DNA from: Desulfatiglandales bacterium
GTDB lineage: Bacteria; Desulfobacterota; DSM-4660; Desulfatiglandales; Desulfatiglandaceae
Direction of reading: 5' to 3'
Assembly: GCA_963666345.1 (NCBI GenBank)
Contig: OY762721.1
Span: 2,528,001-2,592,000, forward strand
DNA length: 64,000 bases
A program made the translations under genes and the position numbers. Shown here piece by piece: positions 49,761 to 64,000 of the stretch (within the stretch, counting starts at the first letter, position 1; the number at the start of each line of letters is the position of its first letter). The notes under the pieces were generated by a model. It was given only the letters and a program-made list of their open reading frames with translations, had not been told where the DNA came from and searched no databases.

Positions 49761-50516
49761 ATGTCATCATACCTTGCAGCTTTGCTGTGTGAAAAGTTCA
49801 TCAAAAAATACATGAGGGTTTTTATGAAAGAGATTCCGCCGGAAGTTTCTAAGAGTGATAGTAATTTGATCCATGAAATATCGTCCCGGAAGCTATCACT
49901 CGGATCATTCCAGAATTTGGCTGCTACGGTTATAGCATGTAGATATCTTCTTAAAAATAAAATCGAAGGAGATTTTGTTGAATGCGGTGTCTGGCGAGGA
50001 GGGCAATCCATTATTGCAGCCAAGATTTTAGGTGAAGGCATGTATAGAAATTATTGGCTCTTTGATACGTTTTGCGGGATGACTCCGCCGACAAAGCTGG
50101 ATGTTGATTATCTGGGAAGGGAGGCGAAAAACAAGGCAGGGAAACAGGATGATGTGATTGAAAATGACTGGGTTTATGCAGAAAAGCACCAAGTCATAGA
50201 CAATATTAAAAATTTTGGACTTGATATCGGAAGATTCAAACTAATTGCCGGAGATGTCGTTGATACCTTAAAGGAATTGGATAATCTCCCCCCAAAAATA
50301 TCGTTGCTCCGTTTAGACACTGATTGGTACGAGTCTACAAAGGTTGAACTTGATGCGCTTTATGACTTGATCGTTCCAAAGGGAATTTTGATAATCGATG
50401 ATTACGGGCATTGGAAAGGAGCAAGAGAGGCGGTTGATGAGTTTTTCGAAAAACGCTTTGCCCCTTTGTTAATCCCTGTAGACTATACATGCCGTATCGT
50501 AATAAAGGCCGAATAA
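49761..50516 (+). CDS. TylF/MycF/NovP family O-methyltransferase
   Basis: GDFVECGVWRGG, FDTFCG, LRLDTDWYES, IDDYGHW. Confidence 0.92.
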   Translation: MSSYLAALLCEKFIKKYMRVFMKEIPPEVSKSDSNLIHEISSRKLSLGSFQNLAATVIACRYLLKNKIEGDFVECGVWRGGQSIIAAKILGEGMYRNYWLFDTFCGMTPPTKLDVDYLGREAKNKAGKQDDVIENDWVYAEKHQVIDNIKNFGLDIGRFKLIAGDVVDTLKELDNLPPKISLLRLDTDWYESTKVELDALYDLIVPKGILIIDDYGHWKGAREAVDEFFEKRFAPLLIPVDYTCRIVIKAE

Positions 50517-50588
50517 ATAGCAATACATATTAATTATATTTTCACATTTGTCTGGAGTTGTTCGTTAATGATTCAAGAGGTTTAACGT

Positions 50589-51689
50589 ATGCTAACAGAA
50601 AAAATAGTTTCTCAGTCAGATATAGATGAACGCTTATCGCATATTAATGAATTAAGCACGTTTCCCATTGTATTATATGGTGCTGGGTTACATGCGTCTG
50701 AAATCGAGTCTTATTTACAGGGGAAAAAGATTTGTATATCTGGCTGCTTTGTTGATGACAGGTATTTGAATTTTGAGCATCGTGTCTCACTTCCTGTCCA
50801 TTCTTTTGACACCATAAAAGAGACTTTCGACAAATTTAATGTTGTTGTAGGATTTTGCAACGATCCGGTTGTTGTGCACGAAAGGTTCAACAGAATCAAA
50901 GGGGAAAAAGTTAATTCAGTGCAGTTTATTGACTGCCGTTTTTGGCAAGAATTTGAAAAGCTGGATCTTGCTTCTATAAAGAAGAATGAAAATAATTACA
51001 ATAAAGTGTGCGCATTCTTCTCAGATGAAAAATCACAAAATACGTACGTTGAATTTATAAATGCAAAATTGACACATGATCCATCAAGGCTTTATGGTCT
51101 GTATTCAAAGCCTCAGTATTTTCCGGATGATCTCCCCATATTTATTCCAACATCTGATGATATATACATTGATGGCGGAGCATATACGGGGGATACGTTG
51201 ATTGATGTCATGGCAATGACTGGTGCCAGGGGTTGTGCAAAATATTATGCTTTTGAACCTGATGCGAAAAATGCTGAAAAATTACGGTCAGTTGTTGATG
51301 CGCGTCACTGGAATTTTGTTAAAGTTATTGAAAAAGGTCTTTGGAGCCAGCCATCGAGGGTTAACTTCGCAGAAAACAACGATACCGGTTCGGCTGTCAA
51401 TGCAATTGGAAATGTACAGATAGATGTGGATGCTATTGATACGTTTAATATTCCGGCGTCATTCATCAAGATGGATATTGAGGGATCCGAGTATAAAGCC
51501 CTTGTCGGAGCAAGAGAGACAATTCTCAAATACCGACCCAATTTGCTTATCTCCCTTTATCATAAGCCTGAGGATTTGCTGCAGATTCCGCTCTATATCA
51601 AGTCTTTGTGCCCTGAATATCGTTTATATTTGAGAATACATGGTTATTACACCGAAGAATTGGTGTTATATGCGACTGTAGGCGATTAG
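50589..51689 (+). CDS. FkbM family methyltransferase with N-terminal Rossmann-like domain
   Basis: LYGAG, IDGGAYTGDT, AFEPD, IKMDIEGSE. Confidence 0.9.
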   Translation: MLTEKIVSQSDIDERLSHINELSTFPIVLYGAGLHASEIESYLQGKKICISGCFVDDRYLNFEHRVSLPVHSFDTIKETFDKFNVVVGFCNDPVVVHERFNRIKGEKVNSVQFIDCRFWQEFEKLDLASIKKNENNYNKVCAFFSDEKSQNTYVEFINAKLTHDPSRLYGLYSKPQYFPDDLPIFIPTSDDIYIDGGAYTGDTLIDVMAMTGARGCAKYYAFEPDAKNAEKLRSVVDARHWNFVKVIEKGLWSQPSRVNFAENNDTGSAVNAIGNVQIDVDAIDTFNIPASFIKMDIEGSEYKALVGARETILKYRPNLLISLYHKPEDLLQIPLYIKSLCPEYRLYLRIHGYYTEELVLYATVGD

Positions 51690-51718
51690 CATGTTTAAAT
51701 ATATTCCAAAGGGATTAG

Positions 51719-52657
51719 ATGGTACTTAAAATGAAATTATCAATAATTAGCCCAATATATCACTCAATAAACAGTATTATCCCTCTCTATGAGCAAATTA
51801 CAGGGTCAATAAAGTCAATATCCGACTTCTCGGATTATGAGATAATTATGGTTGAGGATTGTGGCGGTGATGGATCTTGGGAACTTATTAACAAATTGGC
51901 AGTGAACGACGTGCATGTCAAGGGTATTAAATTAAGTAGAAATTTCGGCCAGCATCATGCGATTACTGCCGGAATGGATTTATGTACGGGAGATTGGGTT
52001 GTAGTCATGGATTGCGACCTCCAGGATGATCCATCTGCGATTGCTAAGTTATGGGAAAAGGCAAAGGAAGGATATGATGTCGTCAATGTTAGACGGAAGG
52101 AACGTAAAGACTCTTTTATTAAAAAAACTCGTTCCAGGCTGTACCATGTCTTTTTTAGGTGGTTAACGGGATTTTCTTACGACCCTCAAATAGCCAATTT
52201 TCATATTATGAGCAGGAAGGTGGTCGACACCTACAAAACCATGCGTGAAAGTTTTAGAGGTATCAACATTCAAATTCATTGGTTAGGTTTCTCCACCTCC
52301 AGCATAGATTTTCCGCATATGCCGCGCTACGATGGGAAGAGTTCATACACTTTAGGTAAGCTATTGGCGCTGGCTCTTGACGTAGCGGTCTCCTATTCCA
52401 ATAAACCTTTACATATTTCAATCATGATTGGCCTTATTATTTCATTTTCTTCGATGGGAATAGCGCTTTGGTTTTTTATTCGTCAGCTTATATGGAAAAT
52501 TCCGATCACAGGATGGACAAGTCTGATAGTATCAATTTGGTTTCTTGGAGGCTGTATCATCGCTAATCTGGGCGTTATAGGTATCTATATAGGTAAAATT
52601 TATAATGAAACCAAACATAGACCTATCTATGTAATTGATAAGAAAGTGAATTATTAA
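51719..52657 (+). CDS. GT2 polyprenol-phosphate glycosyltransferase (GtrB/ArnC-like)
   Basis: LSRNFGQHHAITAG, MDCDLQDDP, two C-terminal TMs, GWTSL, RPIY. Confidence 0.9.
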   Translation: MVLKMKLSIISPIYHSINSIIPLYEQITGSIKSISDFSDYEIIMVEDCGGDGSWELINKLAVNDVHVKGIKLSRNFGQHHAITAGMDLCTGDWVVVMDCDLQDDPSAIAKLWEKAKEGYDVVNVRRKERKDSFIKKTRSRLYHVFFRWLTGFSYDPQIANFHIMSRKVVDTYKTMRESFRGINIQIHWLGFSTSSIDFPHMPRYDGKSSYTLGKLLALALDVAVSYSNKPLHISIMIGLIISFSSMGIALWFFIRQLIWKIPITGWTSLIVSIWFLGGCIIANLGVIGIYIGKIYNETKHRPIYVIDKKVNY

Positions 52658-52690
52658 TTAGAATATGAATCTATTAATATACGGATATAA

Positions 52691-53740
52691 ATGGAACTGC
52701 CAGAATATATAAATATCTCACCATGTCCAGCCGATATGTTGGGAAATATTATCGGACAGATAAAACCGACTAAAATATTTCTGATAACAGACACAAATGT
52801 CCATAAATATTGCTATTCACTTATTTCAGAAAATATTCCGCCGCATAATGTCGTGACTATATTACCGGGTGAAGACCAGAAGAATCTGCAGACATGCATT
52901 GATATCTGGAAGGCTATGACAGATGCCTGTTTGGACAGACACTCCGTTGTTATCAACCTTGGTGGTGGAGTAATTTGCGACATGGGTGGATTCTGCGCTT
53001 CGGTCTATAAACGGGGCCTCTCATTCATTCACTGTCCGACTACACTTTTATCTCAGGTGGACGCCTCTATTGGCGGCAAACTTGGAATTGATTTTGAAAA
53101 TTACAAAAATCAGATAGGTGCGTTTAATAATCCAAATTATGTAATTTTATCAAATGCTTTTCTGAAAACATTGCCGTTAAATGAACTACGATGCGGTTAT
53201 GCCGAAATGATCAAGCACGCGCTGATTAATAGCGTAGAAGACTGGGAAAAACAACTGTCAATGGACTTATCAGAAATTCCATCCGAAGAACAAATAATTA
53301 ATTCTATCAGCATTAAATACCAGGTTGTGTTACAGGATCCAAAGGAAACCGGAGTCAGAAAAGCACTTAATTTTGGCCATACCATAGGTCATGCCGTAGA
53401 AAGTATTCTTTTGGATGGCAAACAAATATCGATTACACACGGGGATGCAGTGGTTGTCGGATTGATTGCCGAATCCTGGTTAAGCTATAAGTGTTTAGGA
53501 TTAAAAAAGTCGGAATTGCACAGTATTTGTAGTTACATTACAAATTATTATCCCGAAATAGAGCTAAATGGAATTTCCGAACAAGATTTTTTTAATGCAT
53601 TGCTTCAGGATAAGAAAAACATTGGAAATAGAATCCTGCCTTCATTAATTAAAAGCATAGGCGAATGTATTGTTAGCGTTTCAGTATCTGCGGAATCATG
53701 CCTGGAAGCACTTAATTTTTATCGAACTATCTACAAGTAA
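52691..53740 (+). CDS. aroB: 3-dehydroquinate synthase
   Basis: GGGVICDMGGF, PTTLLSQVDASIGGK, KNQIG, AEMIKH, RKALNFGHTIGHA, HGDAV, DKKN. Confidence 0.9.
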   Translation: MELPEYINISPCPADMLGNIIGQIKPTKIFLITDTNVHKYCYSLISENIPPHNVVTILPGEDQKNLQTCIDIWKAMTDACLDRHSVVINLGGGVICDMGGFCASVYKRGLSFIHCPTTLLSQVDASIGGKLGIDFENYKNQIGAFNNPNYVILSNAFLKTLPLNELRCGYAEMIKHALINSVEDWEKQLSMDLSEIPSEEQIINSISIKYQVVLQDPKETGVRKALNFGHTIGHAVESILLDGKQISITHGDAVVVGLIAESWLSYKCLGLKKSELHSICSYITNYYPEIELNGISEQDFFNALLQDKKNIGNRILPSLIKSIGECIVSVSVSAESCLEALNFYRTIYK

Positions 53741-53760
53741 ACATTTACTAAGGTTAAAGC

Positions 53761-55104
53761 ATGGGAAATCATAAATGGACTAAAAACAGTTGGCGGTCAT
53801 TTCCCGCCGAGCAGCAACCACACTGGCCGGATATCCAATGCTATGAAGATGTTTTAAAGAAACTATCTGAATTACCATCTCTTGTGTTTGCAGGAGAAAC
53901 TCGCGCATTAAAACGACAATTGGCCGGTGCAGCCGAGGGAAATACTTTTGTATTGCAATGTGGTGACTGCTCCGAAGATTTTTCGAGATGTACCGGACCA
54001 CGTATCCATGCACTGATCAAAGTTGTTCTGCAAATGTCAATTATTCTTGCTTATGCAGGTGAAAAACGAGTTGTGAATATCGGCAGGTTGGCAGGACAGT
54101 ATGCAAAGCCACGTTCTTTAGATGTCGAGGTTGTGGGGGACAAAGAGCTACCTTGCTACCGTGGTGACATGGTAAATAGCTGCGAACCAAACCTGCAGGC
54201 TAGAACTCCAGATCCGCAAAGAATAATAGAAGGTTATTTCAGGTCAACCGCCACCCTCAATCTTGTAAGGGCTTTTACCAGCGGGGGCTATGCAGCACTT
54301 GATATGGTTGACGCATGGCATAAAGACTTTATCGATATGTTCCCGGCAAACCGGAAATACGAAAATCTTGCCAAGGATATCCGAAAAGCATTGACCTTCT
54401 CAAATGCCATCGGAATCGATATCCATGCTCCGCAGGCAAATCAAATCGTTCTATACACTTCCCATGAGGCTCTTTTGCTCGGTTATGAGGAAGCCATGAC
54501 CAGGATAGACACAACTACCGGCGACTGGTTTGATACCAGCGCACACCTGCTATGGATCGGAGATAGGACACGTCAATTAAATGGGGCACATGTCGAGTTT
54601 CTCCGTGGTATCGGTAATCCGATTGGCGTTAAGATCGGTCCTGACTATCAAATTGATGACATAAAAAAAATTGTACAAAGGCTGAATCCCTCCAATGTGC
54701 CCGGGAAGGTTACTCTGATTACTCGTTTTGGTTCAAAAAAAATAGCCAGTCTCCTGCCACAATTGCTGCAGGAAATGAAACGTGAGGGGTTTCAGATCGT
54801 GTGGCTCTGTGATCCGATGCACGGGAACACTTATAAGAATAGCATTCCCATAAAAACTCGAAATTTCGATGATATATTAGAAGAAACCCGCATATTTTTT
54901 GATATCCATAAATCAGAAGATACTGTTGCCGGAGGTGTTCATCTTGAATTGACAGGAGAAAACGTGACAGAATGTATCGGCGGCAGGCGCAACTTTCTTG
55001 CTCAGGACCTGCAAACAAACTATCAAACCACCTGCGATCCGCGCCTTAATGCTGAACAGGCAGTGGAGTTGGCTTTTGAGCTTGCAAATATTTTAAACAG
55101 ATGA
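53761..55104 (+). CDS. class II DAHP synthase
   Basis: GRLAGQYAKPRS, SHEALLLGYE, WIGDRTRQ, CDPMHGN, GGVHLELTG, CDPRLN. Confidence 0.93.
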   Translation: MGNHKWTKNSWRSFPAEQQPHWPDIQCYEDVLKKLSELPSLVFAGETRALKRQLAGAAEGNTFVLQCGDCSEDFSRCTGPRIHALIKVVLQMSIILAYAGEKRVVNIGRLAGQYAKPRSLDVEVVGDKELPCYRGDMVNSCEPNLQARTPDPQRIIEGYFRSTATLNLVRAFTSGGYAALDMVDAWHKDFIDMFPANRKYENLAKDIRKALTFSNAIGIDIHAPQANQIVLYTSHEALLLGYEEAMTRIDTTTGDWFDTSAHLLWIGDRTRQLNGAHVEFLRGIGNPIGVKIGPDYQIDDIKKIVQRLNPSNVPGKVTLITRFGSKKIASLLPQLLQEMKREGFQIVWLCDPMHGNTYKNSIPIKTRNFDDILEETRIFFDIHKSEDTVAGGVHLELTGENVTECIGGRRNFLAQDLQTNYQTTCDPRLNAEQAVELAFELANILNR

Positions 55105-55356: not shown

Positions 55357-56853
55357 ATGGGAGCAATAAGTTTCGCTGATAATCGGTTGAAGAAGACGGC
55401 AAGATTTTTAACGATAATCCTTGTTCTTATTTCAGTTTGTATGCTGGGCAGATTTCTGTCATACGAATATAAACTCTTGAAGTATCCCTACCAGCTGATG
55501 GTGAGAGAATCACTGCAGTTGAATCACGCGATAATCATATCCGAAGGTAAGCCGTTATACGAAATAACCAAGGACCCGCCTCTTGCGATTGAACCTTACG
55601 GCCCCTTATACCCCGCCCTTGTTGCTCCTTTTATAAAGGTCTTAGGCAGGAGTCTGTTTGCTCCCCGTCTTGTTTCTTTAGGCTTTTTCTTATTGCTGGT
55701 TTTTTTTACCGCCTGCGCCGTATTCAGCCTGACTCGAAGCTGGCGCTTTGTGCTTATATCCATCGGCTTGAACGTCTTCATGTTGAACTGGGCAAGGTGG
55801 TTATTGATATGCAAGCCTGACAGCCTGGGAAACTTTTTATTGTTTATCACCCTGTTCATTCACTGGAAGTGGCCTTACAAAAAAACCGCTATTGCATCCA
55901 CCTTGATTGCCGGCATGCTCGGTTTTTTTTCAAAGGCCTATTTTGTATCAGGATTCGGTGCCATAGTCTTAAATTACTGGTTTATTCACAGGGACAAAAA
56001 GATGGCGCTTTCATATCTTCTGTATGGAAGCGCGGCCATAATTATTTCAATATTGGCAGCGGATTATATCACGGGGGGGCTATATTCCCTTTTCACGTTT
56101 AAAATCATGGCTGGCTGGGCCTCAAACAGCTATTCTTTTGCCTACCTGCTTTCAAAGCTGAAGGAGCTTGTATCTTATTTTTTACCGATACTGGTATTGA
56201 TTCCATATTGTATGCTGACAAAATCTTTTGATTATAAGCGTTATGGCCCTTTTTTTACGCATCTGGTGGTCGGGCTCCCTTTATTCGCGTTTCTTCTCGG
56301 TAATCCTGGAGCCGGTAACTACTACTGGTATTGCGTTATTCCGGCACTGATAGTAGTGGGCTGTGACCTCATAAAGAAAAGCCGGCCTGGAAATTTCAAG
56401 GTCATCATACCTTTATTACTGGCCCTCATTCTTATTATGGGTAACCGGGGCTATAGGGATTTGGTGCGAAATAAACTTGTCATACCGTCATCGGAACTGG
56501 CCGGTGAATGGACACCTGTTGCGGAACTGGTAGCCGCTGCAAAAGGACCTGTGATGAACGATGACGCTACCGCCATCCTCAATATTCATGAGGGGAAAAC
56601 CCTGTTTATGGAGGGATTGGGTTATTTTCAAAGCAGGGATTATCTTGTACGCAGGCATGGGTATTCTTTTATTGATGTCAACGAGCAGGTTGCGCAACAA
56701 AAATTCTCACTGATCATAAATCCTCAAAAGGAAATAGAGACTGAGGTTCTGAAATACTATAAACCGATCGGCAGCTACTCCGTCAGCCACCAATTCGGTG
56801 ATCACAGGCACAGCCTTGATCTTTTTGTTCCAAAAACCATTGCTGATTTGTAA
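55357..56853 (+). CDS. polytopic membrane protein, putative GT-C (ArnT/PMT-like) glycosyltransferase
   Basis: ~11-12 TM, periplasmic loop with RE and YGPLYP, PRLVS, KPD motifs; last gene of glycan locus. Confidence 0.65.
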   Translation: MGAISFADNRLKKTARFLTIILVLISVCMLGRFLSYEYKLLKYPYQLMVRESLQLNHAIIISEGKPLYEITKDPPLAIEPYGPLYPALVAPFIKVLGRSLFAPRLVSLGFFLLLVFFTACAVFSLTRSWRFVLISIGLNVFMLNWARWLLICKPDSLGNFLLFITLFIHWKWPYKKTAIASTLIAGMLGFFSKAYFVSGFGAIVLNYWFIHRDKKMALSYLLYGSAAIIISILAADYITGGLYSLFTFKIMAGWASNSYSFAYLLSKLKELVSYFLPILVLIPYCMLTKSFDYKRYGPFFTHLVVGLPLFAFLLGNPGAGNYYWYCVIPALIVVGCDLIKKSRPGNFKVIIPLLLALILIMGNRGYRDLVRNKLVIPSSELAGEWTPVAELVAAAKGPVMNDDATAILNIHEGKTLFMEGLGYFQSRDYLVRRHGYSFIDVNEQVAQQKFSLIINPQKEIETEVLKYYKPIGSYSVSHQFGDHRHSLDLFVPKTIADL

Positions 56854-56987: not shown

Positions 56988-57020
56988 AAAGAAGGCCCCT
57001 TATTCTAAGGGGCCTTCTTT
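56988..57020. terminator. bidirectional intrinsic terminator between convergent operons
   Basis: aaagaaggcccctta-ttc-taaggggccttcttt perfect 15 bp stem. Confidence 0.8.
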
Positions 57021-57032
57021 CGTCTTAAGGTT

Positions 57033-58532
57033 TTATCGGATCTTTTTAGCCGGTTTTTTTGCCATACGCCATATGAAAAAGGCCGTAAGGATTATAAAAC
57101 CGCAGCTTATCGGCCTTTGAAGCACTATGAATGGGTTGTTCCTGCTCATTATGAGGGTCTGCTGGAAGGACAGCTCAAGCATGGGGGTCAGCACAAAACC
57201 TATGATAAAGGTTATGAAGCTTATCTTCAGCTTTTTCAGGAGAAAACCGAGAAAGGCGAAACCGAACATCATATATACGTTGAATATGCTGTTGTTGGCC
57301 ATATAGGCGCCGGTCATACATACGAACATTATGATGGGAAAGACTATGGCGCTTGATATGCTGAGGGCTTTTGCAAAGAATCTGAGCCCTATATTTCCGA
57401 TCAGAAGGTTTAAGACGTTGGCAATAAGCATTGCACCGTAGATGCCGTAGATGAGCTGTCCGTTTTCTTCAAAAAGAAGAGGTCCTGGTGTTACCCCGTG
57501 AATGATGAAAGCCCCGATAAGCATTGCAGATGCGACGTTTCCCGGAATACCCAGTGTGAAAAGGGGAATGAGATTGGCCCCGATGACCGCGTTATTGGCT
57601 GCCTCCGCCGCCGCTACGCCCTCTATGTTTCCTTTTCCAAATGAATCGGGGTCCTTGCTTGCCCTTTTGGCCGCGCCATAGCCTAGAAAGCTGGCGATGG
57701 TGGCCCCCAGTCCCGGAAGGGCGCCAAGGGCTGTCCCTATAAGACTGGAGCGGAAAATCGTTTTACCGCAGCTGCGGTATTCGGCCCAGGAGATGGTACG
57801 GTCGGCCTTGCTTATGTTTTTATCGAAAATGAGGCCGTTATCGCCTTGCTGTGCGTCATGCTTCATTTCTTCCAAACGAACTATTATTTCACTCAGCGCC
57901 AGAAGACCTATTCCCACCGTGATAACACTTATGCCCTCTTCAAGTTCCATGATGTCAAAGGCAAGACGAGGCATGGCGGACACTGGATCAAGGCCCACAC
58001 AGGCAAATGTTATACCCAGACATGCCCCTATGAGTCCTTTCAGCAGGGAGTCCGCTTCAAGACCGGCAATCATGGCAAGGGCGAAGACGATAACGGCGAA
58101 GATCTCCGGCGGCCCCATTTTAAGAGCGAGTGTGGCTATCGGCGCTGCAACGAAAATGAGCACAAGATCGGAAAAGGTGTCTCCTGTTACCGACGCATAA
58201 AGGCTTATCTTAAGAGCCTTTTCTCCCTTTCCCTGTTTTGCAAGCGGGTATCCGTCAAAGCAGGTAGCCGCGGCCTCCGGAGTCCCGGGGGTATTTAAGA
58301 GGATCGCAGCGATCGAGCCCCCAAAGGAGGCGCCTTTGTTGAGACCGATAAGAAAGGCCACTGCGATCAACGGGCCCATATAATATGTTATAGGCACCAT
58401 CAAGGCGATTGCCATGGGGCCGTTAAGACCCGGCAGGGCGCCCACGATGACACCTATGCCTACCCCCAGGGCAAGATATATTATGTTCCCCAGAGTAAAG
58501 GCGTCTGCAAAACCGGCGAGAATAGCTTCCAT
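57033..58532 (-). CDS. tctA: tripartite tricarboxylate transporter large subunit
   Basis: GALPGL, NTPGTP, FDGYPLAKQG, EAANNA, LGIPG. Confidence 0.93.
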   Translation of the reverse strand: MEAILAGFADAFTLGNIIYLALGVGIGVIVGALPGLNGPMAIALMVPITYYMGPLIAVAFLIGLNKGASFGGSIAAILLNTPGTPEAAATCFDGYPLAKQGKGEKALKISLYASVTGDTFSDLVLIFVAAPIATLALKMGPPEIFAVIVFALAMIAGLEADSLLKGLIGACLGITFACVGLDPVSAMPRLAFDIMELEEGISVITVGIGLLALSEIIVRLEEMKHDAQQGDNGLIFDKNISKADRTISWAEYRSCGKTIFRSSLIGTALGALPGLGATIASFLGYGAAKRASKDPDSFGKGNIEGVAAAEAANNAVIGANLIPLFTLGIPGNVASAMLIGAFIIHGVTPGPLLFEENGQLIYGIYGAMLIANVLNLLIGNIGLRFFAKALSISSAIVFPIIMFVCMTGAYMANNSIFNVYMMFGFAFLGFLLKKLKISFITFIIGFVLTPMLELSFQQTLIMSRNNPFIVLQRPISCGFIILTAFFIWRMAKKPAKKIR

Positions 58533-58570
58533 AGATTAAAGTAACTCCAAGTTTCCAAAAATGTCACAAG

Positions 58571-59032
58571 TTAAGGCAAAGGCATACTGAGGCCGTACCA
58601 GAGTGCCGCATACATGATAAGGGGTCCGGCTACGGCAACTGCCGATATCAGCGCAGGCCTTCTTTCTCCGCAGACAACCATCCCGGCTGCAATGGTAACG
58701 ATGCCCCCTGCGATATAGCCGAGAAATGAGAACACCAGGGTGCCGCATGCGAAAAGTCCAGCGTATTTTGCAAGGTGAATCCATGAGCCCCTGTTAATGG
58801 GGGCAGGGTCTTCATCTTCCTTTTTCCATGTGCCCGGCAGGTTTTTCAGGAGTAACAGCAGGGAAAGTATCCCCGTTACCGCCATGGCCGTAATCGGTAG
58901 TACATCGGATGGGGCGCCGAATTCTCCCGCCTCGGGGCACCATGCCGGGATAATAAAGAAAATCATTGCAATACTGAAACCGATAAGCATCAGGGCAACG
59001 ATAAAATCAGTCTTACGCATACCTTTCCTCAT
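58571..59032 (-). CDS. tctB: tripartite tricarboxylate transporter small subunit
   Basis: 4 TM, C-terminal LSMPLP, between tctC and tctA. Confidence 0.8.
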   Translation of the reverse strand: MRKGMRKTDFIVALMLIGFSIAMIFFIIPAWCPEAGEFGAPSDVLPITAMAVTGILSLLLLLKNLPGTWKKEDEDPAPINRGSWIHLAKYAGLFACGTLVFSFLGYIAGGIVTIAAGMVVCGERRPALISAVAVAGPLIMYAALWYGLSMPLP

Positions 59033-59086
59033 TTTATGGGGAATGAAAGGGGGAGGGGATGGTTTTTCCTCTCCCCTTTTTTTCGG

Positions 59087-60031
59087 TTATTTCCCAAGCA
59101 GTTTCTTAAAACCTGCTGCGTCTTTTTCTATTTGCATCAGGGTATCGGCAGGTCCTTTGAAGACCTTGAGCCAGTGGACCTTACTCTGAATGAGATCGGT
59201 CAGTTCCTTGTCCTGGGCTGCCTTTTGCATGGCGCCGGAAAGTTTTTCCAGAATGCCTTTGTCAACCCCTTTGGGTGTGTAAACAAAGCAGTAGTTGACA
59301 AAATCAATATCATAGCCGAGTGATTTGAGTGTAGGTATCTCAGGAAAGTCCACAAGGCCTTTACTTGAAAGGGCTGCGAGGATTTTTGCCTTCCCGGCCT
59401 TTACATATGAATAGTGAATTCCTCCGCTGAAGCCGAAGTCCACATGTTTTCCCATAACGGCACTTATGACGGCCGCGCCACCCTTTGTGGGAACCGGTTG
59501 AATCGTAAGCCCTTCTTTGGAACTGATGGCTTTGGTAAAAATCTTGTCGATCGGTATAAGGGATGCGTAGTTTACAAAACCATTCTTTTTCCCATAATCA
59601 ATCATTTCCCGCCATGTGGAAAACGGCGCATCAGCGTAAGTCACGAATGCCTCCTGAGACTGACAGATGCTTCCCACAACATCAAAGTCCTGGTAAGTGA
59701 AAGGGGCCTTTTTTGCAAAATAGGGATTAAAGGTCAGTGCGGTTATCATGTTGATGCCTATGGTATAGCCGTCCGGTTTGGCCATCTTCAGGCTCTTTGC
59801 ACCCAGTGAGCCGCCTGCGCCCCCCTTGTTTTCCACTATCACCGGCTGTCCCAGTTCGTCAGCCATATGCTTTGCAAGTATCCGTGCGATAGTATCGACA
59901 TTGCCACCCGCCCTGAAGGCCGCAATCATCTTTATAGGCCTTTGAGGGTATTCGGCAAAACAGGTTGATGAAAAGGAAAGACATAAAATAAAAAAAGATG
60001 TCAAGAGGGTTAAGGTTCCGATTTTTTTCAT
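59087..60031 (-). CDS. tctC: TTT substrate-binding protein (Bug family)
   Basis: Signal peptide, YPQRPI, AGGNVDTIAR, VENKGGAGG, KPDGYT, PEIPTLK. Confidence 0.92.
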   Translation of the reverse strand: MKKIGTLTLLTSFFILCLSFSSTCFAEYPQRPIKMIAAFRAGGNVDTIARILAKHMADELGQPVIVENKGGAGGSLGAKSLKMAKPDGYTIGINMITALTFNPYFAKKAPFTYQDFDVVGSICQSQEAFVTYADAPFSTWREMIDYGKKNGFVNYASLIPIDKIFTKAISSKEGLTIQPVPTKGGAAVISAVMGKHVDFGFSGGIHYSYVKAGKAKILAALSSKGLVDFPEIPTLKSLGYDIDFVNYCFVYTPKGVDKGILEKLSGAMQKAAQDKELTDLIQSKVHWLKVFKGPADTLMQIEKDAAGFKKLLGK

Positions 60032-60062
60032 GATGGGTTCCTCCTTGAAATATAAAAAGTGT

Positions 60063-60878
60063 TTAATTTTCTACCCCTGCCAGACGGTAGGCGCCCTCAG
60101 GATGTGACGTATCGCCACAAGCGCCCCTACGGGTCATTTCTGTAAAATAGATCTCGTCCCACTCCACGTTTGCAAGATTTACATGGGTGCCGAATTTGCT
60201 TACCATCCAGAAGAGTATCTGGGTCTTGTACGACTTGGTTACATCCGGAAGATACTGAACCGGAAGTTCGAACATGAGCTTTTCAGCAGGTATCTTTTGC
60301 ATTAATTCCTCTATTACATCTTCGCGGATGTCTCCATGGAACAGCTCATGGGCCTCCAGCAGGACGCACTTGCATCCAGCCTCCATGCATAGTTCGCAGT
60401 CGGCGATAATTTCATCCCCGCTCATAACGCCCTCTTTGCGGCCAACCTCTCCCATCACCACAAGTCCGAAATCATTGACCGCCTTTTTTATGGCCGCCCT
60501 TTTGTCGCCTGGTGAAAGTTTTATGAGATTGTCGCTAACTTCGATCCCTGAAAAGCCGAGATCAATTGATTCCTGAAGGTATTTTTCAAAGTTGCCCTGT
60601 ACAAGGGCAAGCTCGGCAAAAAGACCGCCTGGGAAGACAAAGATCCCGGCGTCCTTGTAGGCATTGATCTTTTTTTCGAGGTAGGGCTTTGGTGTAACTC
60701 CGGCAATGGATCCGGCTATCTTGGCCTCGTCCACGTAGAGACCCTGGCTTTCGATCAGGTCCAGCTGCATGTTAAAGGGGAGACCCCAGTCGATCATCAT
60801 GGTCTGCCCCTTGGTTCTTGGTTTGTCTTCCCTTTCGGGCATCGGGATGCTTCCATAGGCAAATGTAAGTTCACTCAT
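60063..60878 (-). CDS. comA: phosphosulfolactate synthase (ComA) family protein
   Basis: KPRTKGQTMMIDWG, IEVSDN, EVGRKE, FELP, VNLANV, RRGACGDT. Confidence 0.8.
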   Translation of the reverse strand: MSELTFAYGSIPMPEREDKPRTKGQTMMIDWGLPFNMQLDLIESQGLYVDEAKIAGSIAGVTPKPYLEKKINAYKDAGIFVFPGGLFAELALVQGNFEKYLQESIDLGFSGIEVSDNLIKLSPGDKRAAIKKAVNDFGLVVMGEVGRKEGVMSGDEIIADCELCMEAGCKCVLLEAHELFHGDIREDVIEELMQKIPAEKLMFELPVQYLPDVTKSYKTQILFWMVSKFGTHVNLANVEWDEIYFTEMTRRGACGDTSHPEGAYRLAGVEN

Positions 60879-61671
60879 TCATATTCTCCTTAAGATCCTG
60901 TTTCTTTTTAACTGGTTGTGGGTAATAGCCCAGGTTGTATGAGATTTCTCCTGCCGCACCTCTCAGCTCACCGGCTAGGGTTTCAATTTGATCCCCGAGC
61001 ACCTTTACCGTGAGGCCTGACAGACTGATGGCCCCGAGCGGTCTGCCTTCCGGGCCCAGGATAGGAACACCGAGGCCGGATTGACCCAGAAGTGCTTCTT
61101 CCTCGGAAATGGAATAGCCCCGCTCTTTAGTCGTATCAAGTTCCTTCCTGATATCATTGACGTCGGTAATGGTGCGTGGTGTATAGGGTAGAGGGACAAG
61201 AGAATCCAGGTATCCATCCAGTTCCTCCTTTGAGACCGAAGAGAGAAAGGCCTTTCCCAGGGCCGTGCAGTATGCGGGAACTCGAGGGCCAAGCCGGCTC
61301 GGCTGCTCTGCGTGAGCCATCGGGGTGGATTGAAGGGATACGAGTATGGAGTCCCTATCCCAGATCCCTATCCTGCAAACAACACCGGCGTCATTTGCCA
61401 GCCGGCAGGCTATCTCTCTTCCTTCCCTGTTTATCCTCAGGTTCTTTACGACAATTCCACCCAGCTCAATATATTTGGCTGCCAGCATGTAATGGGCCTT
61501 TTTTTTGTCATAATCGAGATAGCCTGTTTCCCGCATGGTTGTCATGATTCCGTAGGCTGTTGCCTTGGCAAGTCCGAGTTCTTTTGAAACCTCCGCTAGA
61601 GTTAGTACCGGCTTGTTTGAGCTGAAAAGGGATAAAATGGAAAATGCGCGGCTGACGGATTGTATTGGCAT
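60871..61671 (-). CDS. IclR family transcriptional regulator
   Basis: IQSVSRAFSIL HTH, YCTALGKA, YTPRT, RGYS. Confidence 0.93.
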   Translation of the reverse strand: MPIQSVSRAFSILSLFSSNKPVLTLAEVSKELGLAKATAYGIMTTMRETGYLDYDKKKAHYMLAAKYIELGGIVVKNLRINREGREIACRLANDAGVVCRIGIWDRDSILVSLQSTPMAHAEQPSRLGPRVPAYCTALGKAFLSSVSKEELDGYLDSLVPLPYTPRTITDVNDIRKELDTTKERGYSISEEEALLGQSGLGVPILGPEGRPLGAISLSGLTVKVLGDQIETLAGELRGAAGEISYNLGYYPQPVKKKQDLKENMNE

Positions 61672-61702
61672 GAGTCCTCCTTATAATGTCGAATGGTATA
61701 CG

Positions 61703-61731
61703 ATTATATTTTATGCAAAAAGTCATGTCAA
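61703..61731 (-). promoter_or_regulatory. consensus sigma70 promoter of iclR-comA-tctCBA
   Basis: Minus strand TTGACA (61731-61726), 17 bp, TATAAT (61708-61703); GGAGG SD before ATG. Confidence 0.8.
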
Positions 61732-61829
61732 ACAAAAATCCAATTTTCCGTTAATATCATGTAATATATTGAAACAACTATTATTATAGCTAAATAAATG
61801 GAATAATACTCTTGATTTGAAAGAGTTTC

Positions 61830-61859
61830 TTGACAGCAGAAAGAAAAAATAAATAGAAT
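61830..61859 (+). promoter_or_regulatory. sigma70 promoter of sulfatase-like operon
   Basis: TTGACA (61830-61835), 18 bp, TAGAAT (61854-61859). Confidence 0.65.
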
Positions 61860-61923
61860 ATCATTCGATAATGTTTAATACCAAATTGAAATATGACTGA
61901 ATTAAGAAAGGAGTATATCGCAA

Positions 61924-63339
61924 ATGAACCTTATTTTGGTTATCATCGATTCTCTCAGAAAAGATCATGTGGGTGCCTATGGCAATGAATGGATACATAC
62001 CCCTAATCTGGACAGCTTTTTTTCAGAGAGCATGAGGTTTACCAGTGCCTATCCTGAATCGCTTCCCACACTTCCGATGCGGAGGTCGATACATACCGGC
62101 ATCAGGACATTTCCCTTCAGAGGCTGGAAGGGACAGCCCACAAGCTATCCTCTTACCACAATGTTCGGGTCCAAGGTCTGGATCCCCGGCTGGACCGCCA
62201 TACCGTGGGAGCAGAAGACCCTTGCCGAGCATCTCAATGAATACAATTACGATTCCGGCTATTTTACAGACTGTTTTCATCAGGACTATGCGGGAATGAA
62301 CTTTCACCGGGGATTTCACGCCTGGGAGATGATCCGGGGGCAGGAGTGGGACTGCTGGAAGACCGATCCCGGAATGGCAAAAAGCGACATCGCGGCAAAG
62401 CATTTCACAAAGGGCATGGAATGGGAAAAGCGCAAGACATGGGAGCTTACCAGGTATCTTACAAACAACAGCCATCGTCAGAGCGAAGAGGACTATTTCC
62501 CGGCCCAGGTGTTCAGGGCCGCCACCCGCTGGATTGAAAAAAACAGGGACGCTGAGAATATCTTCGCGTGTGTCGACTGCTTTGATCCTCATGAACCTTG
62601 GGATCCCCCGAAACATTACAGGGAGCTTTATGATCCGGGATACAAGGGAACGGAGGTGATAATGCCGCTGTATTATGACAAGGCGGACAAGTACCTTACA
62701 CCTGAGGAGCTTAACCATATGAAGGCCATGTATGCGGGCGAATGCAGCATGGTGGATCGCTGGTTCGGTTTCTTTATGGATACGGTAAGACTCCTGGGGC
62801 TTGACAAAAATTCCATTATAGTAGTTACAAGTGATCACGGCCACCAGCTGGGGGAAAAGAACATGACGGGAAAGCTTCCCTGGGGGTTAATGCCCTGTCT
62901 GCTTGACCTGGTTATGGGGATACGCCATCCGCAAGGCGAAGGTGCTGGAAAGACCTGTGACGCCTATGCCATGAATCATGATATCATGCCTACCGTTCTT
63001 TCCATGATGGGTATTGATGTACCTGATCAGTGCGAGGGTGAGAACCTGTGGCCTGTCGCCATGGGGAAGGAAAACTCCAAGCGCGATCATGTGAGCACTA
63101 TTTTCAAGGATTACCTATGGACCGCGAATGATTCCTGGGCCCTGATTACAAGAAACAACAAGACCGAGATGGAACTCTACGACATTAAAAAGGACCCTGA
63201 ATATTTAAAAGACGTGTCGGCTGATCACCCGGAGGTGGTTGAACAGATGTGGAAAACCCTTCTTGAGGATGCAGGAGGTGACATCCCGATACCTGAAGGT
63301 GCAAGTGAGGCGATACTCGAAAAGGGCGGTATGAAGTAG
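61924..63339 (+). CDS. sulfatase-like alkaline-phosphatase-superfamily hydrolase with Thr at nucleophile position
   Basis: IIDSLRKD, TPNLD, TLPMRRSIHTG (T-x-P-x-R), DPHEPW, TSDHG, ELYD. Confidence 0.85.
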   Translation: MNLILVIIDSLRKDHVGAYGNEWIHTPNLDSFFSESMRFTSAYPESLPTLPMRRSIHTGIRTFPFRGWKGQPTSYPLTTMFGSKVWIPGWTAIPWEQKTLAEHLNEYNYDSGYFTDCFHQDYAGMNFHRGFHAWEMIRGQEWDCWKTDPGMAKSDIAAKHFTKGMEWEKRKTWELTRYLTNNSHRQSEEDYFPAQVFRAATRWIEKNRDAENIFACVDCFDPHEPWDPPKHYRELYDPGYKGTEVIMPLYYDKADKYLTPEELNHMKAMYAGECSMVDRWFGFFMDTVRLLGLDKNSIIVVTSDHGHQLGEKNMTGKLPWGLMPCLLDLVMGIRHPQGEGAGKTCDAYAMNHDIMPTVLSMMGIDVPDQCEGENLWPVAMGKENSKRDHVSTIFKDYLWTANDSWALITRNNKTEMELYDIKKDPEYLKDVSADHPEVVEQMWKTLLEDAGGDIPIPEGASEAILEKGGMK

Positions 63340-63363
63340 GGACCTTTTAAAGGGGCAGCACTT

Positions 63364-64000
63364 ATGGAACTGAATTTTTTCCCCATATTACTTCTGGGAA
63401 TACTCTGGTTTATAGGAACCCGTTTCTGGCCTTGTGTCCATGAAACGGGTGTAACCCTTTATGACAGGGAAAGGGCCTTTGATGGTTTTACACTCTGGGC
63501 TCCGCTTGAGGCGGATAACAGCGGGATAGAGCCCTGGCAGAGACCCGGCATGGTTTATCTCATGAATATGAATGGGGATTGTGTCCATTCATGGAATACC
63601 CCCTTTCCTGTCTGTTATGCGCGCCTTGAAAAAGACGGACATATTGTCACGGGGATGAGAAGCGGTGATGCCTCGGATCCGGAAAGGCCCGGCATAGGCG
63701 GATACCCGATGGGGGGGGCCACCGGATGGCTCTGGGAGCTTGATTGGGAAGGAAACACCCTTTTCAGCCATTTTGATCCATGCATGCACCATGATTTCCG
63801 CAGGCTTGAGAATGGAAATTACATCTATCTCGGATGGGAAAAGGTGCCTGCTGATCTTGCCTTAAGCATAAGAGGCGGATTTTCAGGCAGCGAACATGCA
63901 GGAGGGGTTATCTTCAGCGACTATATCAGGGAAATAGATCCTTCAGGAAATATCACGTGGGAGTGGCATGCCACGGGTCACATGGACACTGATACGGATA
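63364..64000 (+). CDS. aryl-sulfate sulfotransferase (ASST)-like beta-propeller protein, truncated by window end
   Basis: Own translation from ATG 63364, open to end: TGVTLYDRERAFDGFTL, VYLMNMNGDCVHSW, ELDWEG, MHHDFRRLENGN, EIDPSGNITWEW. Confidence 0.8.
   Translation, partial: MELNFFPILLLGILWFIGTRFWPCVHETGVTLYDRERAFDGFTLWAPLEADNSGIEPWQRPGMVYLMNMNGDCVHSWNTPFPVCYARLEKDGHIVTGMRSGDASDPERPGIGGYPMGGATGWLWELDWEGNTLFSHFDPCMHHDFRRLENGNYIYLGWEKVPADLALSIRGGFSGSEHAGGVIFSDYIREIDPSGNITWEWHATGHMDTDTD

Follow-up and report, generated by a model that had tools for sequence, protein, structure and literature searches.

A non-canonical ComA-like protein in a conserved, putatively catabolic organosulfur locus of a Desulfatiglandales bacterium

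The end of the 64,000-nucleotide stretch of DNA analysed here (the window) raises the question of what a homologue of the phosphosulfolactate (PSL) synthase ComA does between a regulator and an importer. On the minus strand the genes follow each other in the order iclR, comA-like, tctC, tctB and tctA. The first gene of this operon (60871..61671) encodes an IclR-family regulator (IclR_C, 104.9 bits; HTH_IclR, 50.9 bits), and its stop codon region overlaps the start of the comA-like gene (60063..60878) by 8 nt (ATGAGTGA); the sequence AAGGAG was found 7 nt 5' of the comA-like ATG. The ComA-like protein (P0001, 271 aa) matched the Pfam family ComA with 183.9 bits (cut-off 25.2). The tripartite tricarboxylate transporter (TTT) is encoded by tctC (59087..60031; PF03401, 155.4 bits), the periplasmic solute-binding protein with a signal peptide-like N-terminus, tctB (58571..59032; PF07331, 39.6 bits), the small membrane subunit, and tctA (57033..58532; PF01970, 476.5 bits), the large membrane subunit. 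A consensus scan placed a terminator-like hairpin with a weak T-run 3' of tctA, between convergent genes (56996..57011, minus strand). A preliminary description had reported a comA homologue coupled to iclR and ahead of a TTT importer, and the reading frames, the protein families and the 8-nt overlap all agreed with this.

Two genes diverge from this operon on the plus strand. The first (61924..63339) encodes a predicted cytoplasmic S1-sulfatase-like hydrolase of the alkaline phosphatase superfamily (P0002, 471 aa; PF00884, 87.8 bits). The second (63364..64000) encodes an ASST-like beta-propeller protein of 414 aa with a hydrophobic N-terminal segment, and about 608 bases of it continue beyond the end of the window. 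The fragment in the window scored 19.6 bits with the ASST profile, below the cut-off of 24.2, while the full protein from the genome reached 67.8 bits.

By consensus match, the iclR operon has a sigma-70-like promoter at 61703..61731 on the minus strand (TTGACA, 17 nt, TATAAT; 12/12), and the sulfatase-like/ASST-like unit has one at 61830..61859 on the plus strand (TTGACA, 18 nt, TAGAAT; 11/12). Each of the two divergent promoters carries one copy of a 13-nt operator-like motif, recognised by motif match: TCGAATGGTATAC between the iclR -10 box and ribosome binding site (61689..61701, plus strand), and TCGAATGATATTC overlapping the -10 box of the plus-strand promoter (61856..61868, minus strand). 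No further exact copy occurs in the 4.16-Mb genome. With up to two mismatches, the motif was present 27 to 36 nt upstream of the iclR start in seven of 33 other loci, compared with 1.65% of random 320-bp windows. In related loci (L009 and L026 from one MAG, and L091) the genes for IclR, the ASST-like protein, the Thr-type hydrolase described below, the ComA-like protein and TctCBA are co-directional. As relatives have a single co-directional operon and both divergent promoters share the motif, these seven genes probably form one unit.

The neighbourhood of the ComA-like clade was conserved. Within the flanking DNA available, TTT genes were present at 31 and sulfatase-type genes at 32 of 43 genome loci, and 11-12 loci had neither. 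Among 73 metagenome loci, many of them on short contigs, 42 had TTT genes, 41 sulfatase-type genes and 30 both. Many unrelated genomes and metagenome contigs share the arrangement of IclR, ComA and TctCBA with a sulfatase-like gene, which is therefore more than chance. The tie of this ComA to importer genes and a putative local repressor, part of the earlier proposal, is conserved across phyla. Up to four kinds of sulfate-ester enzyme accompany the clade: a Cys-type S1 enzyme resembling choline sulfatase, an MBL protein with an alkylsulfatase dimerisation domain, an MBL protein closest to the arylsulfatase structure 8gyg, and ASST. The Cys-type sulfatases of sister loci were closest to choline sulfatase, with 213 bits to PDB 6fny and 284 bits to TIGR03417, the latter below its cut-off of 433. 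Since the conserved partners are sulfate-ester enzymes, they point to an O-sulfated substrate. In the preliminary description sulfatases had been named, as far as the interpretation is concerned, only in the title.

The ComA-like protein itself is not a canonical PSL synthase, judging from three lines of sequence comparison. It scored 154.4 bits with the NCBIfam equivalog arch_ComA, about half of the cut-off of 280. The scores of 118 full-length family representatives were bimodal, with 28 at 250 bits or more, one at 213 and 89 at 99-190 bits. In a FastTree phylogeny of 175 rows, a branch with support 98 set the 28 canonical rows apart from all others, and the window protein lay inside a 44-row clade (support 99). 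Signature residues were also lost, as described below. This assignment rests on the low equivalog score, the position outside the canonical clade and the missing residues, and the three agreed with the earlier view of a non-canonical ComA. That view had named clustering with canonical CoM enzymes, together with comBCDE elsewhere in the genome, as evidence against it; the protein did not cluster in this way, and such a gene set was not found. No comB, comC or comDE lies within the window, as noted before, and the genome had no match to the Ldh_2/ComC family and none above the cut-off to sulfopyruvate decarboxylase beta (ComDE), so that a CoM pathway was not detected in the genome by these searches.

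A lone ComB-family gene, the sole match in the genome, is located about 420 kb away in a housekeeping context, between genes for a class II tRNA synthetase and a phosphotyrosine phosphatase.

The comA-like gene was also rare: in samples of 150 further genomes of the order and 54 of the family, it had a match (E ≤ 1e-40) in one and in none, respectively. A true PSL synthase for sulfolactate or CoM biosynthesis or for sulfite trapping, with a transporter next to it by accident, would be in line with the clear Pfam match, the ComB-family phosphatase and the presence of sulfite as an intermediate in a host that carries dsrA (574 bits; cut-off 393). Such a role is nevertheless extremely unlikely for a rare gene whose product falls short of the equivalog cut-off, branches apart from the canonical clade and has lost the signature residues, in a genome without detected ComC and ComDE and with its ComB-like gene far off among housekeeping genes. 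The operon with a solute-binding-protein-dependent importer and a putative local repressor, conserved across phyla, argues against it as well.

The fold of ComA was retained. The AF2 model had a pLDDT of 89 and a Foldseek TM score of 0.80 to M. jannaschii ComA (1qwg), with which the protein shares 32% identity. K53, E89, E113, S115, D116, E144, K148, E175, E178, E204, N234, N237 and R250 are common to all groups, and this core includes the counterparts of Glu103 and Lys137, the Mg ligand and the general acid of archaeal ComA. The alignment to 1qwg bore out the three motif differences noticed earlier, KIAGSI, GGL and EAHE in the window protein versus KFGWGT, GGT and EGRE. Both solved PSL synthases (1qwg and B. 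subtilis YitD, 1u83) retain GWGT, GGT, E-x-R-E, QQ and the C-terminal Arg. The canonical residues K31, T58, T86, G117, R177, Q221, Q222 and R254 are present in 22-28 of the 28 canonical representatives; at these positions the clade (40 sequences) has W, I, L, N, Y/H, V/I, A/T and A/G. The eight replaced positions are hydrophobic or small in the ComA-like proteins, whereas six of them are polar or charged in the canonical enzymes. The clade also has a 13-residue loop inserted after strand 7, with an invariant Lys in all 40 sequences. While the window protein shares Pfam family, fold and the invariant acidic and lysine core with 1qwg and 1u83, it differs from both in its separate clade, the eight replacements, the insert, and a context in which genes for an importer, a putative repressor and sulfatases take the place of comB/C/DE. 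In the predicted structure the replacements come after the C-terminal ends of the strands of the barrel, and the pocket is more hydrophobic (W31, I58, L86, L118, F180, L205). It appears to have been rebuilt for a substrate without phosphate; that the phosphate pocket has been lost is what we infer from the barrel topology of the model.

The neighbouring hydrolase P0002 has Thr at the formylglycine position (TLPMR), as do all 120 of its nearest homologues. According to the account in PMC5066984, formylglycine is not obtainable from Thr, which makes the Thr-type hydrolase at most a putative sulfatase. The locus could on these grounds be a phosphate-ester module, with the Thr-type protein as phosphatase or phosphodiesterase and the ComA-like protein acting on a phosphorylated acid; the DUF3604, Metallophos and HAD esterase folds encoded near remoter ComA-like genes are likewise phosphoesterase-like. 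However, P0002 keeps the P and R of the sulfatase-type motif (T-x-P-x-R), and sister loci fill the same operon position with Cys-type choline-sulfatase-like enzymes, alkylsulfatase-type enzymes and ASST. The ComA-like pocket has also lost R177, R254 and K31, cationic residues that one would expect to bind a phosphate, and we regard a phosphate-ester module as quite improbable.

A similar pairing has been described in SAR11, where the TTT 'Tct-1' lies in a flexible island between two phosphosulfolactate synthase genes and is read as catabolic (PMC11796062). In that account phosphosulfolactate is the proposed substrate, and the text on this island gives no enzyme, residue or sulfatase analysis; the likeness to our locus lies in the pairing as described. 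In the present locus, import of phosphosulfolactate and its conversion to PEP and sulfite by the ComA homologue would be the reversal of a known reaction, and a Thr nucleophile, as in the neighbouring hydrolase, is typical of phosphoesterases in the alkaline phosphatase superfamily. Against this stand the replacement of residues kept by both solved PSL synthases and by most canonical representatives, the equivalog score of about half the cut-off, and sulfatase partners that would be superfluous on such a route. Phosphosulfolactate is also not known as an environmental solute, and this route is highly improbable.

TctA was 62-70% identical to TctA of four Desulfobacterales-type loci, and the best solved relative of TctC was BugD (E 9e-34). 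TctC shared 41-49% identity with TctC of eight related loci, but only 26-32% with that of alphaproteobacterial loci. As Desulfobacterales-type and alphaproteobacterial TctC share only 26-32% identity, the substrate may differ between sub-clades. That some TTT systems import sulfolactate, as stated earlier, is in print for SlcHFG (PMC5812351), in which tctB is described after tctA, unlike the order C-B-A of the window. In Roseovarius nubinhibens and Chromohalobacter salexigens the logic of SuyAB with SlcHFG may match that of the present locus, with uptake of a C3 sulfo-acid through a TTT and its cleavage to sulfite and pyruvate by a lyase in the cytoplasm, but these clusters are not described with sulfatases. 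SuyAB belongs to the altronate-dehydratase-type family and not to the ComA fold. Choline-O-sulfate utilisation (BetC) is comparable in that the cell takes up a small sulfate ester and has it cleaved in the cytoplasm by an S1 sulfatase, under a local regulator; it differs in that the window has an importer for carboxylates, a Thr-type hydrolase and an additional ComA-like enzyme.

Where the sulfatases have taken off the sulfur beforehand, the reaction of the ComA-like protein could be one without sulfur. The locus might then serve the breakdown of a sulfated hydroxy-carboxylate, with the ComA-like protein performing a racemisation, epimerisation, hydration or dehydration for ordinary dehydrogenases. 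Desulfation would be covered by the conserved partners, all of them sulfate-ester enzymes, and the pocket has gained hydrophobicity. The genome has another module with TTT and Thr-type hydrolase, in which a LarAH5-type malate racemase (542 bits; cut-off 462) takes the place of the ComA-like protein as accessory enzyme. Just past the window, a GlcD/CCG-type 2-hydroxyacid oxidase, IorAB and an ADP-forming acyl-CoA synthetase (ACD) could together consume a 2-hydroxy acid, although a separate IclR (34% identical) belongs to this cluster, which lies beside none of the related loci mapped. The sole known chemistry of the ComA family is, however, C-S bond formation with sulfite, and in one sub-lineage without importers and without sulfatase (L020, L138, L139 and L141) a TauE/SafE gene lies directly 3' of the comA-like gene. 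A link to a sulfur oxyanion is also suggested by remoter importer-linked comA-like genes, which adjoin genes for TauD, an aminotransferase, alanine dehydrogenase or a 2-hydroxyacid dehydrogenase. In five alpha- and betaproteobacterial genomes, none of 40 TauE-family matches fell within the range of the ComA-like locus. On balance a role of the ComA-like protein unrelated to sulfur is unlikely, though conceivable.

We return to the reading of the locus as a catabolic organosulfur module rather than the site of a PSL synthase, which we hold with good confidence. For the fuller proposal, that the module is IclR-repressed, handles an imported sulfated or sulfonated carboxylate and uses the ComA-like protein for an enolate step, most likely the beta-elimination of a sulfur oxyanion, the chances are about even. 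The twelve features located here would then belong to one uptake and breakdown module for an anionic organosulfur carboxylate. TctCBA would carry the compound into the cytoplasm, where sulfatase-type enzymes would strip an O-sulfate, in this locus presumably the Thr-type S1-like hydrolase and the ASST-like protein; in relatives FGly-type, alkylsulfatase-type and AtsA-type MBL enzymes would add to this set. The ComA-like protein would keep the family machinery by which an enolate adjacent to a carboxylate is formed and stabilised by Mg2+. It would remove the alpha-proton and then expel the sulfur oxyanion by beta-elimination, leaving an enol or 2-oxo acid; this assignment is tentative, somewhat short of even chances. 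A C-sulfonate, as in a 3-sulfolactate-type acid, would give sulfite as the oxyanion, and sulfate is the alternative. We know of no natural carboxylate with both an O-sulfate and a sulfonate. Of the catabolic role proposed in the preliminary description, the direction is supported by importer, regulator and non-canonical ComA, and the release of sulfite by ComA only partly, with TauE/SafE as the one hint from the neighbourhood. As a sediment sulfate reducer that carries dsrA, the host could respire either anion, and the combination of an importer, a sulfatase-like enzyme and an unusual ComA recurs in many marine and sediment bacteria.

The feature at 57033-64000 consists of two divergent transcription units. 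The preliminary description of a ComA homologue coupled to iclR, together with a tripartite tricarboxylate transporter (TTT) and divergently oriented genes, was confirmed in its genes and families. On the minus strand, iclR (60871-61671) encodes a protein with both diagnostic domains, an N-terminal HTH_IclR domain (50.9 bits) and a C-terminal IclR effector domain (104.9 bits). No NCBIfam equivalog was reached by this protein, the top match being the PcaR/PobR subfamily with 136.6 bits against a cut-off of 284.75. The ATG of the ComA-family gene (60063-60878, minus, PF02679) has an 8-nt overlap with the iclR stop and is preceded 7 nt upstream by AAGGAG. All three TTT subunits, the SBP and the small and large membrane proteins, were recognized by Pfam in adjacent genes of the same strand: tctC (59087-60031, PF03401), tctB (58571-59032, PF07331) and tctA (57033-58532, PF01970), each above the cut-off. 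The plus strand carries a sulfatase-family gene (61924-63339, PF00884, 87.8 bits) and an ASST-like gene that begins at 63364 and runs off the window end. The full ASST-like protein, taken from the genome, has 414 aa and matched PF05935 with 67.8 bits and PF14269 with 36.2 bits (beta-propeller).

The intergenic region between iclR and the sulfatase-like gene comprises 252 bp. Judged by consensus matches only, it contains one sigma-70-like promoter facing iclR (12/12) and one facing the sulfatase-like gene (11/12). The sequence TCGAATGRTATWC is present in one copy per promoter, in inverted orientation and at or just after the -10 box, and no further exact copy exists in the 4.16-Mb genome. A survey covered the DNA upstream of 34 iclR genes from related loci, one of which belonged to the organism's own metagenome contig. 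A copy of the motif with no more than 2 mismatches was located 27-36 nt before the iclR start codon in 7 of the 33 other loci, against a background of 1.65% of 2000 random 320-bp windows. From its position and recurrence the 13-nt motif is read as a putative IclR operator, through which both divergent units would be repressed. A wider regulon was dropped and cannot be claimed, because the 17 further genome sites of TCGAATGRTATWC with one mismatch, compared with 14 for a control pattern, are at chance level.

The ComA-like protein aligned with the whole of PF02679 (profile positions 1-243 of 243) at 183.9 bits, and its AF2 model (pLDDT 89) predicted a TIM barrel of the ComA fold. The top fold matches in the PDB were 1qwg, the ComA of M. 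jannaschii (TM 0.80, 32% identity), 9cm1 (TM 0.80), a designed nanoparticle filed as phosphosulfolactate synthase, and 1u83, YitD of B. subtilis (TM 0.76). On the NCBIfam equivalog TIGR03849 (arch_ComA) the protein reached 154.4 bits, which is below the cut-off of 280, while canonical representatives scored 250-344 bits. A family search of 1.84 billion representatives gave 864 members at E <= 0.001. The arch_ComA scores of the 118 proteins with a length of 235-330 aa among the best 150 of these 864 were bimodal, with 28 at 250 bits or more, one at 213 and 89 at 99-190 bits. A FastTree phylogeny was calculated from 175 rows, namely the window protein, 110 representatives and 64 locus-encoded proteins; eight representatives with a partial or fused match and locus proteins that were shorter than 240 aa or contained a stop (including those of L019 and L026) were left out. 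The 28 canonical rows formed one side of a branch with a support of 98, and the window protein was placed within a clade of 44 rows with a support of 99 (local SH-like values only). Despite its full-length family match and fold, the window ComA homologue is not a canonical enzyme.

The same separation was apparent from the residues. Thirteen alignment columns (K53, E89, E113, S115, D116, E144, K148, E175, E178, E204, N234, N237 and R250) are kept in every group. The first ten of them, K53 to E204, represent the conserved catalytic core, with its lysines and acidic side chains at the ends of the strands, and this core is present in the window protein. Canonical proteins have K31, T58, T86, G117, R177, Q221, Q222 and R254 (each in 22-28 of 28 rows) and are gapped at 207-219. 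The corresponding residues in 40 rows of the clade are W31, I58, L86, N117, Y/H177, V/I221, A/T222 and A/G254, and a 13-residue insert with an invariant K218 (40/40) follows strand 7. At three of these positions the window protein differs from most of the clade, namely T219 (H in 32 of 40), L222 and C254. The signature common to the two solved phosphosulfolactate synthases (EC 4.4.1.19) and the canonical clade (GWGT, GGT, SDG, E-x-R-E, QQ, a C-terminal R and no insert) is absent from it; its equivalents are AGSI, GGL, SDN, EAHE, IL and C, with the 13-residue insert. B. subtilis YitD has the canonical GWGT, GGT, E-A-R-E, QQ and Arg. The three motif differences named beforehand were correct, as KIAGSI, GGL and EAHE stand opposite KFGWGT, GGT and EGRE in the alignment with M. 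jannaschii ComA. In the AF2 model the changed positions are predicted to lie after the C-terminal ends of the barrel strands, where the active sites of TIM barrels are found. E113, K148 and residue 177 align with Glu103, Lys137 and Arg170 of the archaeal enzyme, which we take to be, in that order, a ligand of Mg, the general acid and an arginine of the active site. The enolate-forming machinery would accordingly seem to be retained, and the pocket for a highly charged phospho-sulfo substrate appears to have been rebuilt for a less charged ligand.

The host genome is a single contig of 4.16 Mb with 48% G+C and contains dsrA (574 bits, cut-off 393). The CoM/sulfolactate-pathway partners of a canonical ComA (comB, comC and comDE) were looked for, and such a set was not found: family searches of the genome detected no Ldh_2/ComC and no sulfopyruvate decarboxylase beta above the cut-off. 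The single ComB-family gene is located 420 kb away in a housekeeping context, between genes for a tRNA synthetase and a phosphotyrosine phosphatase. Few relatives encode the clade protein: at E <= 1e-40, a sample of 150 other genomes of the same order contained it once, and 54 genomes of the same family did not contain it. In the literature covered on phosphosulfolactate synthase, no catabolic reaction is assigned to any ComA homologue beyond a guess for SAR11, made in a passage of PMC11796062, that phosphosulfolactate is imported; this guess fits poorly with the residues and context of the window protein. PMC5812351 treats SlcHFG, and in PMC9136965 a ComA homologue is proposed to supply a sulfoacetyl group. 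True phosphosulfolactate synthesis by the window enzyme likewise fits the residue data and the context poorly.

The sulfatase-family protein possesses a PF00884 domain and no signal peptide. Its motif is T-L-P-M-R, in which the Cys or Ser of C/S-x-P-x-R is replaced by a Thr that aligns with the nucleophile (formylglycine) position of 6psm. Thr was found in all 120 nearest homologues, as T-x-P-x-R in 102 and as T-x-Q-x-R in 18; some of these homologues are named as Asgard archaea or Armatimonadota. The SulfAtlas paper (PMC5066984) states that Thr variants exist within PF00884, that formylglycine formation from threonine was never demonstrated, and that, as long as evidence is lacking, members of an uncharacterised T-x-N-x-E group cannot be classed as functional sulfatases. 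The Mn arylsulfatase described in PMC12421950 uses Cys. In view of the Thr at the formylglycine position and the SulfAtlas statements (PMC5066984), the window protein may be a sulfatase with a Thr nucleophile or a phosphoesterase. The Thr-type family appears to be large and uncharacterised.

The genome encodes eight PF00884 proteins, of which six have the Thr motif and lack a signal peptide. The Thr-type sites are 795759, 2774804, 3665317, 3701950 and 4075177 on the genome contig G000:C1 (loci L080-L085) and 61924-63339 in the window. Each of the eight genes is part of a module that has a binding-protein-dependent importer, of the TTT type for four, ABC for three (one of them shared by two sulfatase genes) and TRAP for one, and every module also has a local regulator; the organism therefore seems to be specialised in small imported esters. 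Among these modules only that of the window contains a ComA-like gene. One of the others (L083, G000:C1:3625001-3645000) combines two sulfatase-family genes with an NMT1-type ABC importer, GntR, an MttB-family methyltransferase, a corrinoid protein and a PAPS-reductase-domain protein, and so resembles a system for utilising a sulfated quaternary amine, for instance choline-O-sulfate. Another (L082, G000:C1:788001-806000) comprises a TTT importer, a Thr-type hydrolase, a LarAH5 malate racemase (542 bits, cut-off 462), a split galactarate/altronate-dehydratase-type protein, a tartronate-semialdehyde-reductase-like dehydrogenase and an aldehyde:ferredoxin oxidoreductase, and possibly handles a sulfated C4 hydroxy-dicarboxylate. 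A SuyAB-type sulfolactate lyase was dropped for this locus, as NCBIfam names only a distant galactarate-dehydratase relative and the LarAH5 malate racemase.

The neighbourhood of the clade, which the preliminary description had named as a check on its reading, was analysed in other genomes. A pattern scan with one genome per species gave 74 loci; ORFs were called crudely and clustered, clusters were named by Pfam, NCBIfam and PDB searches, and families were mapped back by tblastn. In the 43 loci of the clade (L003-L043, L059 and the window's own), TTT genes were present in the sequence around 31, in 26 cases within 3 kb, and at least one sulfatase-type gene around 32. An IclR or MarR gene was found within 6 kb in 31 of the 43. 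Eleven to twelve had no TTT, sulfatase-type or IclR/MarR genes, two of these being short contigs that end beside the gene. The recurrent partners were a cytoplasmic Cys-type S1 sulfatase nearest to choline sulfatase (284 bits, cut-off 433; 213 bits to PDB 6fny), an MBL protein with an alkylsulfatase dimerisation domain, an MBL protein whose top solved relative is the arylsulfatase 8gyg, ASST-like propellers, and DUF3604, for which no solved relative was found by sequence. The clade includes Desulfobacterales-type MAGs with the IclR form, and Rhodospirillales, Rhodobacteraceae, Granulosicoccus, Hyphomicrobiales and Pseudacidovorax with the MarR form. A metagenome scan added 80 loci; the contig of the organism itself, a duplicate and five distant loci were excluded from these. 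Many of the contigs of the remaining 73 measure just 1-5 kb; TTT genes were detected in 42, sulfatase-type genes in 41 and both in 30.

Among the genomes, the closest relative is a MAG divided between L009 and L026, in which IclR, a Thr-type hydrolase (61% identical to that of the window, with the same T-L-P-x-R), ComA-like, TctC, TctB, TctA and ASST-like genes are all co-directional. The metagenome locus L091 has the order IclR, ASST, Thr-type hydrolase, ComA-like, TctC and TctA, and in two further loci (L087 and L089) the Thr-type hydrolase gene immediately precedes the ComA-like gene. The seven genes of the window are one set, with the hydrolase/ASST pair merely inverted and an operator-like motif in common. 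The feature was confirmed: it is real, it is conserved, and it places a ComA-family enzyme from a distinct clade within putative sulfate-ester uptake operons. TctC is 41-49% identical within the Desulfobacterales type and 26-32% identical to the others, and is not clearly one orthologous lineage across phyla.

Genes beyond this set were also inspected. Just past the window (L077:8682-17679, window-equivalent 64682-73679) lie convergent IorB/IorA genes (IorA 775 bits, cut-off 651), a second iclR, a divergent gene for an 875-aa GlcD-type FAD oxidase fused to Fe-S/CCG domains and one for an ADP-forming acyl-CoA synthetase, which could form a route from a 2-hydroxyacid through acyl-CoA to ATP. This cluster was kept out of the ComA module because it has a separate IclR (34% identical to the first) and is beside none of the mapped related loci. 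A 498-aa ORF (55357-56853, plus), convergent with tctA, had no match in Pfam or NCBIfam that passed the thresholds applied. The G+C content is 0.38-0.39 over 50000-54000 (glycosyltransferase/methyltransferase and AroB genes), compared with 0.45-0.53 in the ComA module and a genome mean of 0.48.

Some ComA-like genes have other surroundings. In one marine Rhodospirillaceae-type lineage (L020, 7974-9531; L138, L139 and L141) the clade gene is present without importer or sulfatase and is immediately followed by a gene for TauE/SafE, an anion exporter; the pair is located between an acetyl-CoA-synthetase-like gene and rsmB. The MAG of L020 also carries the TTT/sulfatase version (L015). In Rhodospirillales MAGs (L023-L030) three or four S1 sulfatase genes belonging to different sub-types surround the ComA-like gene, together with an FAA-hydrolase-family gene and one for a xanthine-dehydrogenase-type molybdenum enzyme; this set points to a substrate there with several sulfate groups. 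Remoter ComA-like genes (31-39% identity) also occur beside TAXI-TRAP, DctPQM or TTT importers, and are adjoined by genes for TauD, AcnX, Metallophos, an aminotransferase, alanine dehydrogenase or a 2-hydroxyacid dehydrogenase.

To our knowledge, ComA is known solely as a sulfonate-building enzyme. Binding-protein-dependent TTT systems import, and importer operons controlled by IclR or MarR are typically catabolic. Alongside the observed parts, gene order, clade separation, residue pattern and conserved synteny, we infer a route in which the imported compound would be an acid with a sulfate ester, and possibly a sulfonate too. It would be de-esterified in the cytoplasm, and the ComA-like enzyme would then abstract the proton next to the carboxylate and eliminate a beta sulfur oxyanion. 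A sulfur-linked step is favoured because of the family precedent, the TauE/SafE genes behind the clade gene in L020, L138, L139 and L141, and the sulfonate-type neighbours of remoter members. It is weighed against by the sulfatases, which could account for all sulfur, and by TauE itself, since none of its 40 matches in five alphaproteobacterial/betaproteobacterial genomes has coordinates inside the ComA-like locus ranges; we also know of no natural substrate that fits such a step. The main rival is a sulfur-free enolate reaction, in which the hydroxy acid left after desulfation would undergo racemisation, epimerisation or a hydratase reaction, and in another module of the genome (L082) the LarAH5 malate racemase takes that role.

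A more far-reaching form of the sulfur-linked reading, which we regard as improbable, is that the importer-linked clade is a new cofactor-independent, Mg2+-dependent C-S lyase that, together with cytoplasmic sulfatases including the Thr-nucleophile type, mineralises a small acid bearing both O-sulfate and C-sulfonate, such as O-sulfated 3-sulfolactate. We know of no described natural product with both groups of such a kind. If true, this route would provide sulfate reducers with sulfite without ATP activation, and the acid would be an unrecognised currency of the marine sulfur cycle.

The apparently rebuilt pocket, the presumably inducible uptake operons and up to four kinds of sulfate-ester enzymes concern the whole clade, whose hosts are sulfate reducers, Rhodospirillales, roseobacters and other marine and sediment bacteria. 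The locus is a handle on what the Thr-type 'sulfatase' family hydrolyses, because six members are present in the genome, each in an importer module. Once solved, the reaction of the ComA-like enzyme would end the routine mis-annotation as 'phosphosulfolactate synthase', of which a methane-related reading in a sponge metatranscriptome is an example, and would supply a missing enzyme, and probably a missing substrate too, for organosulfur cycling.
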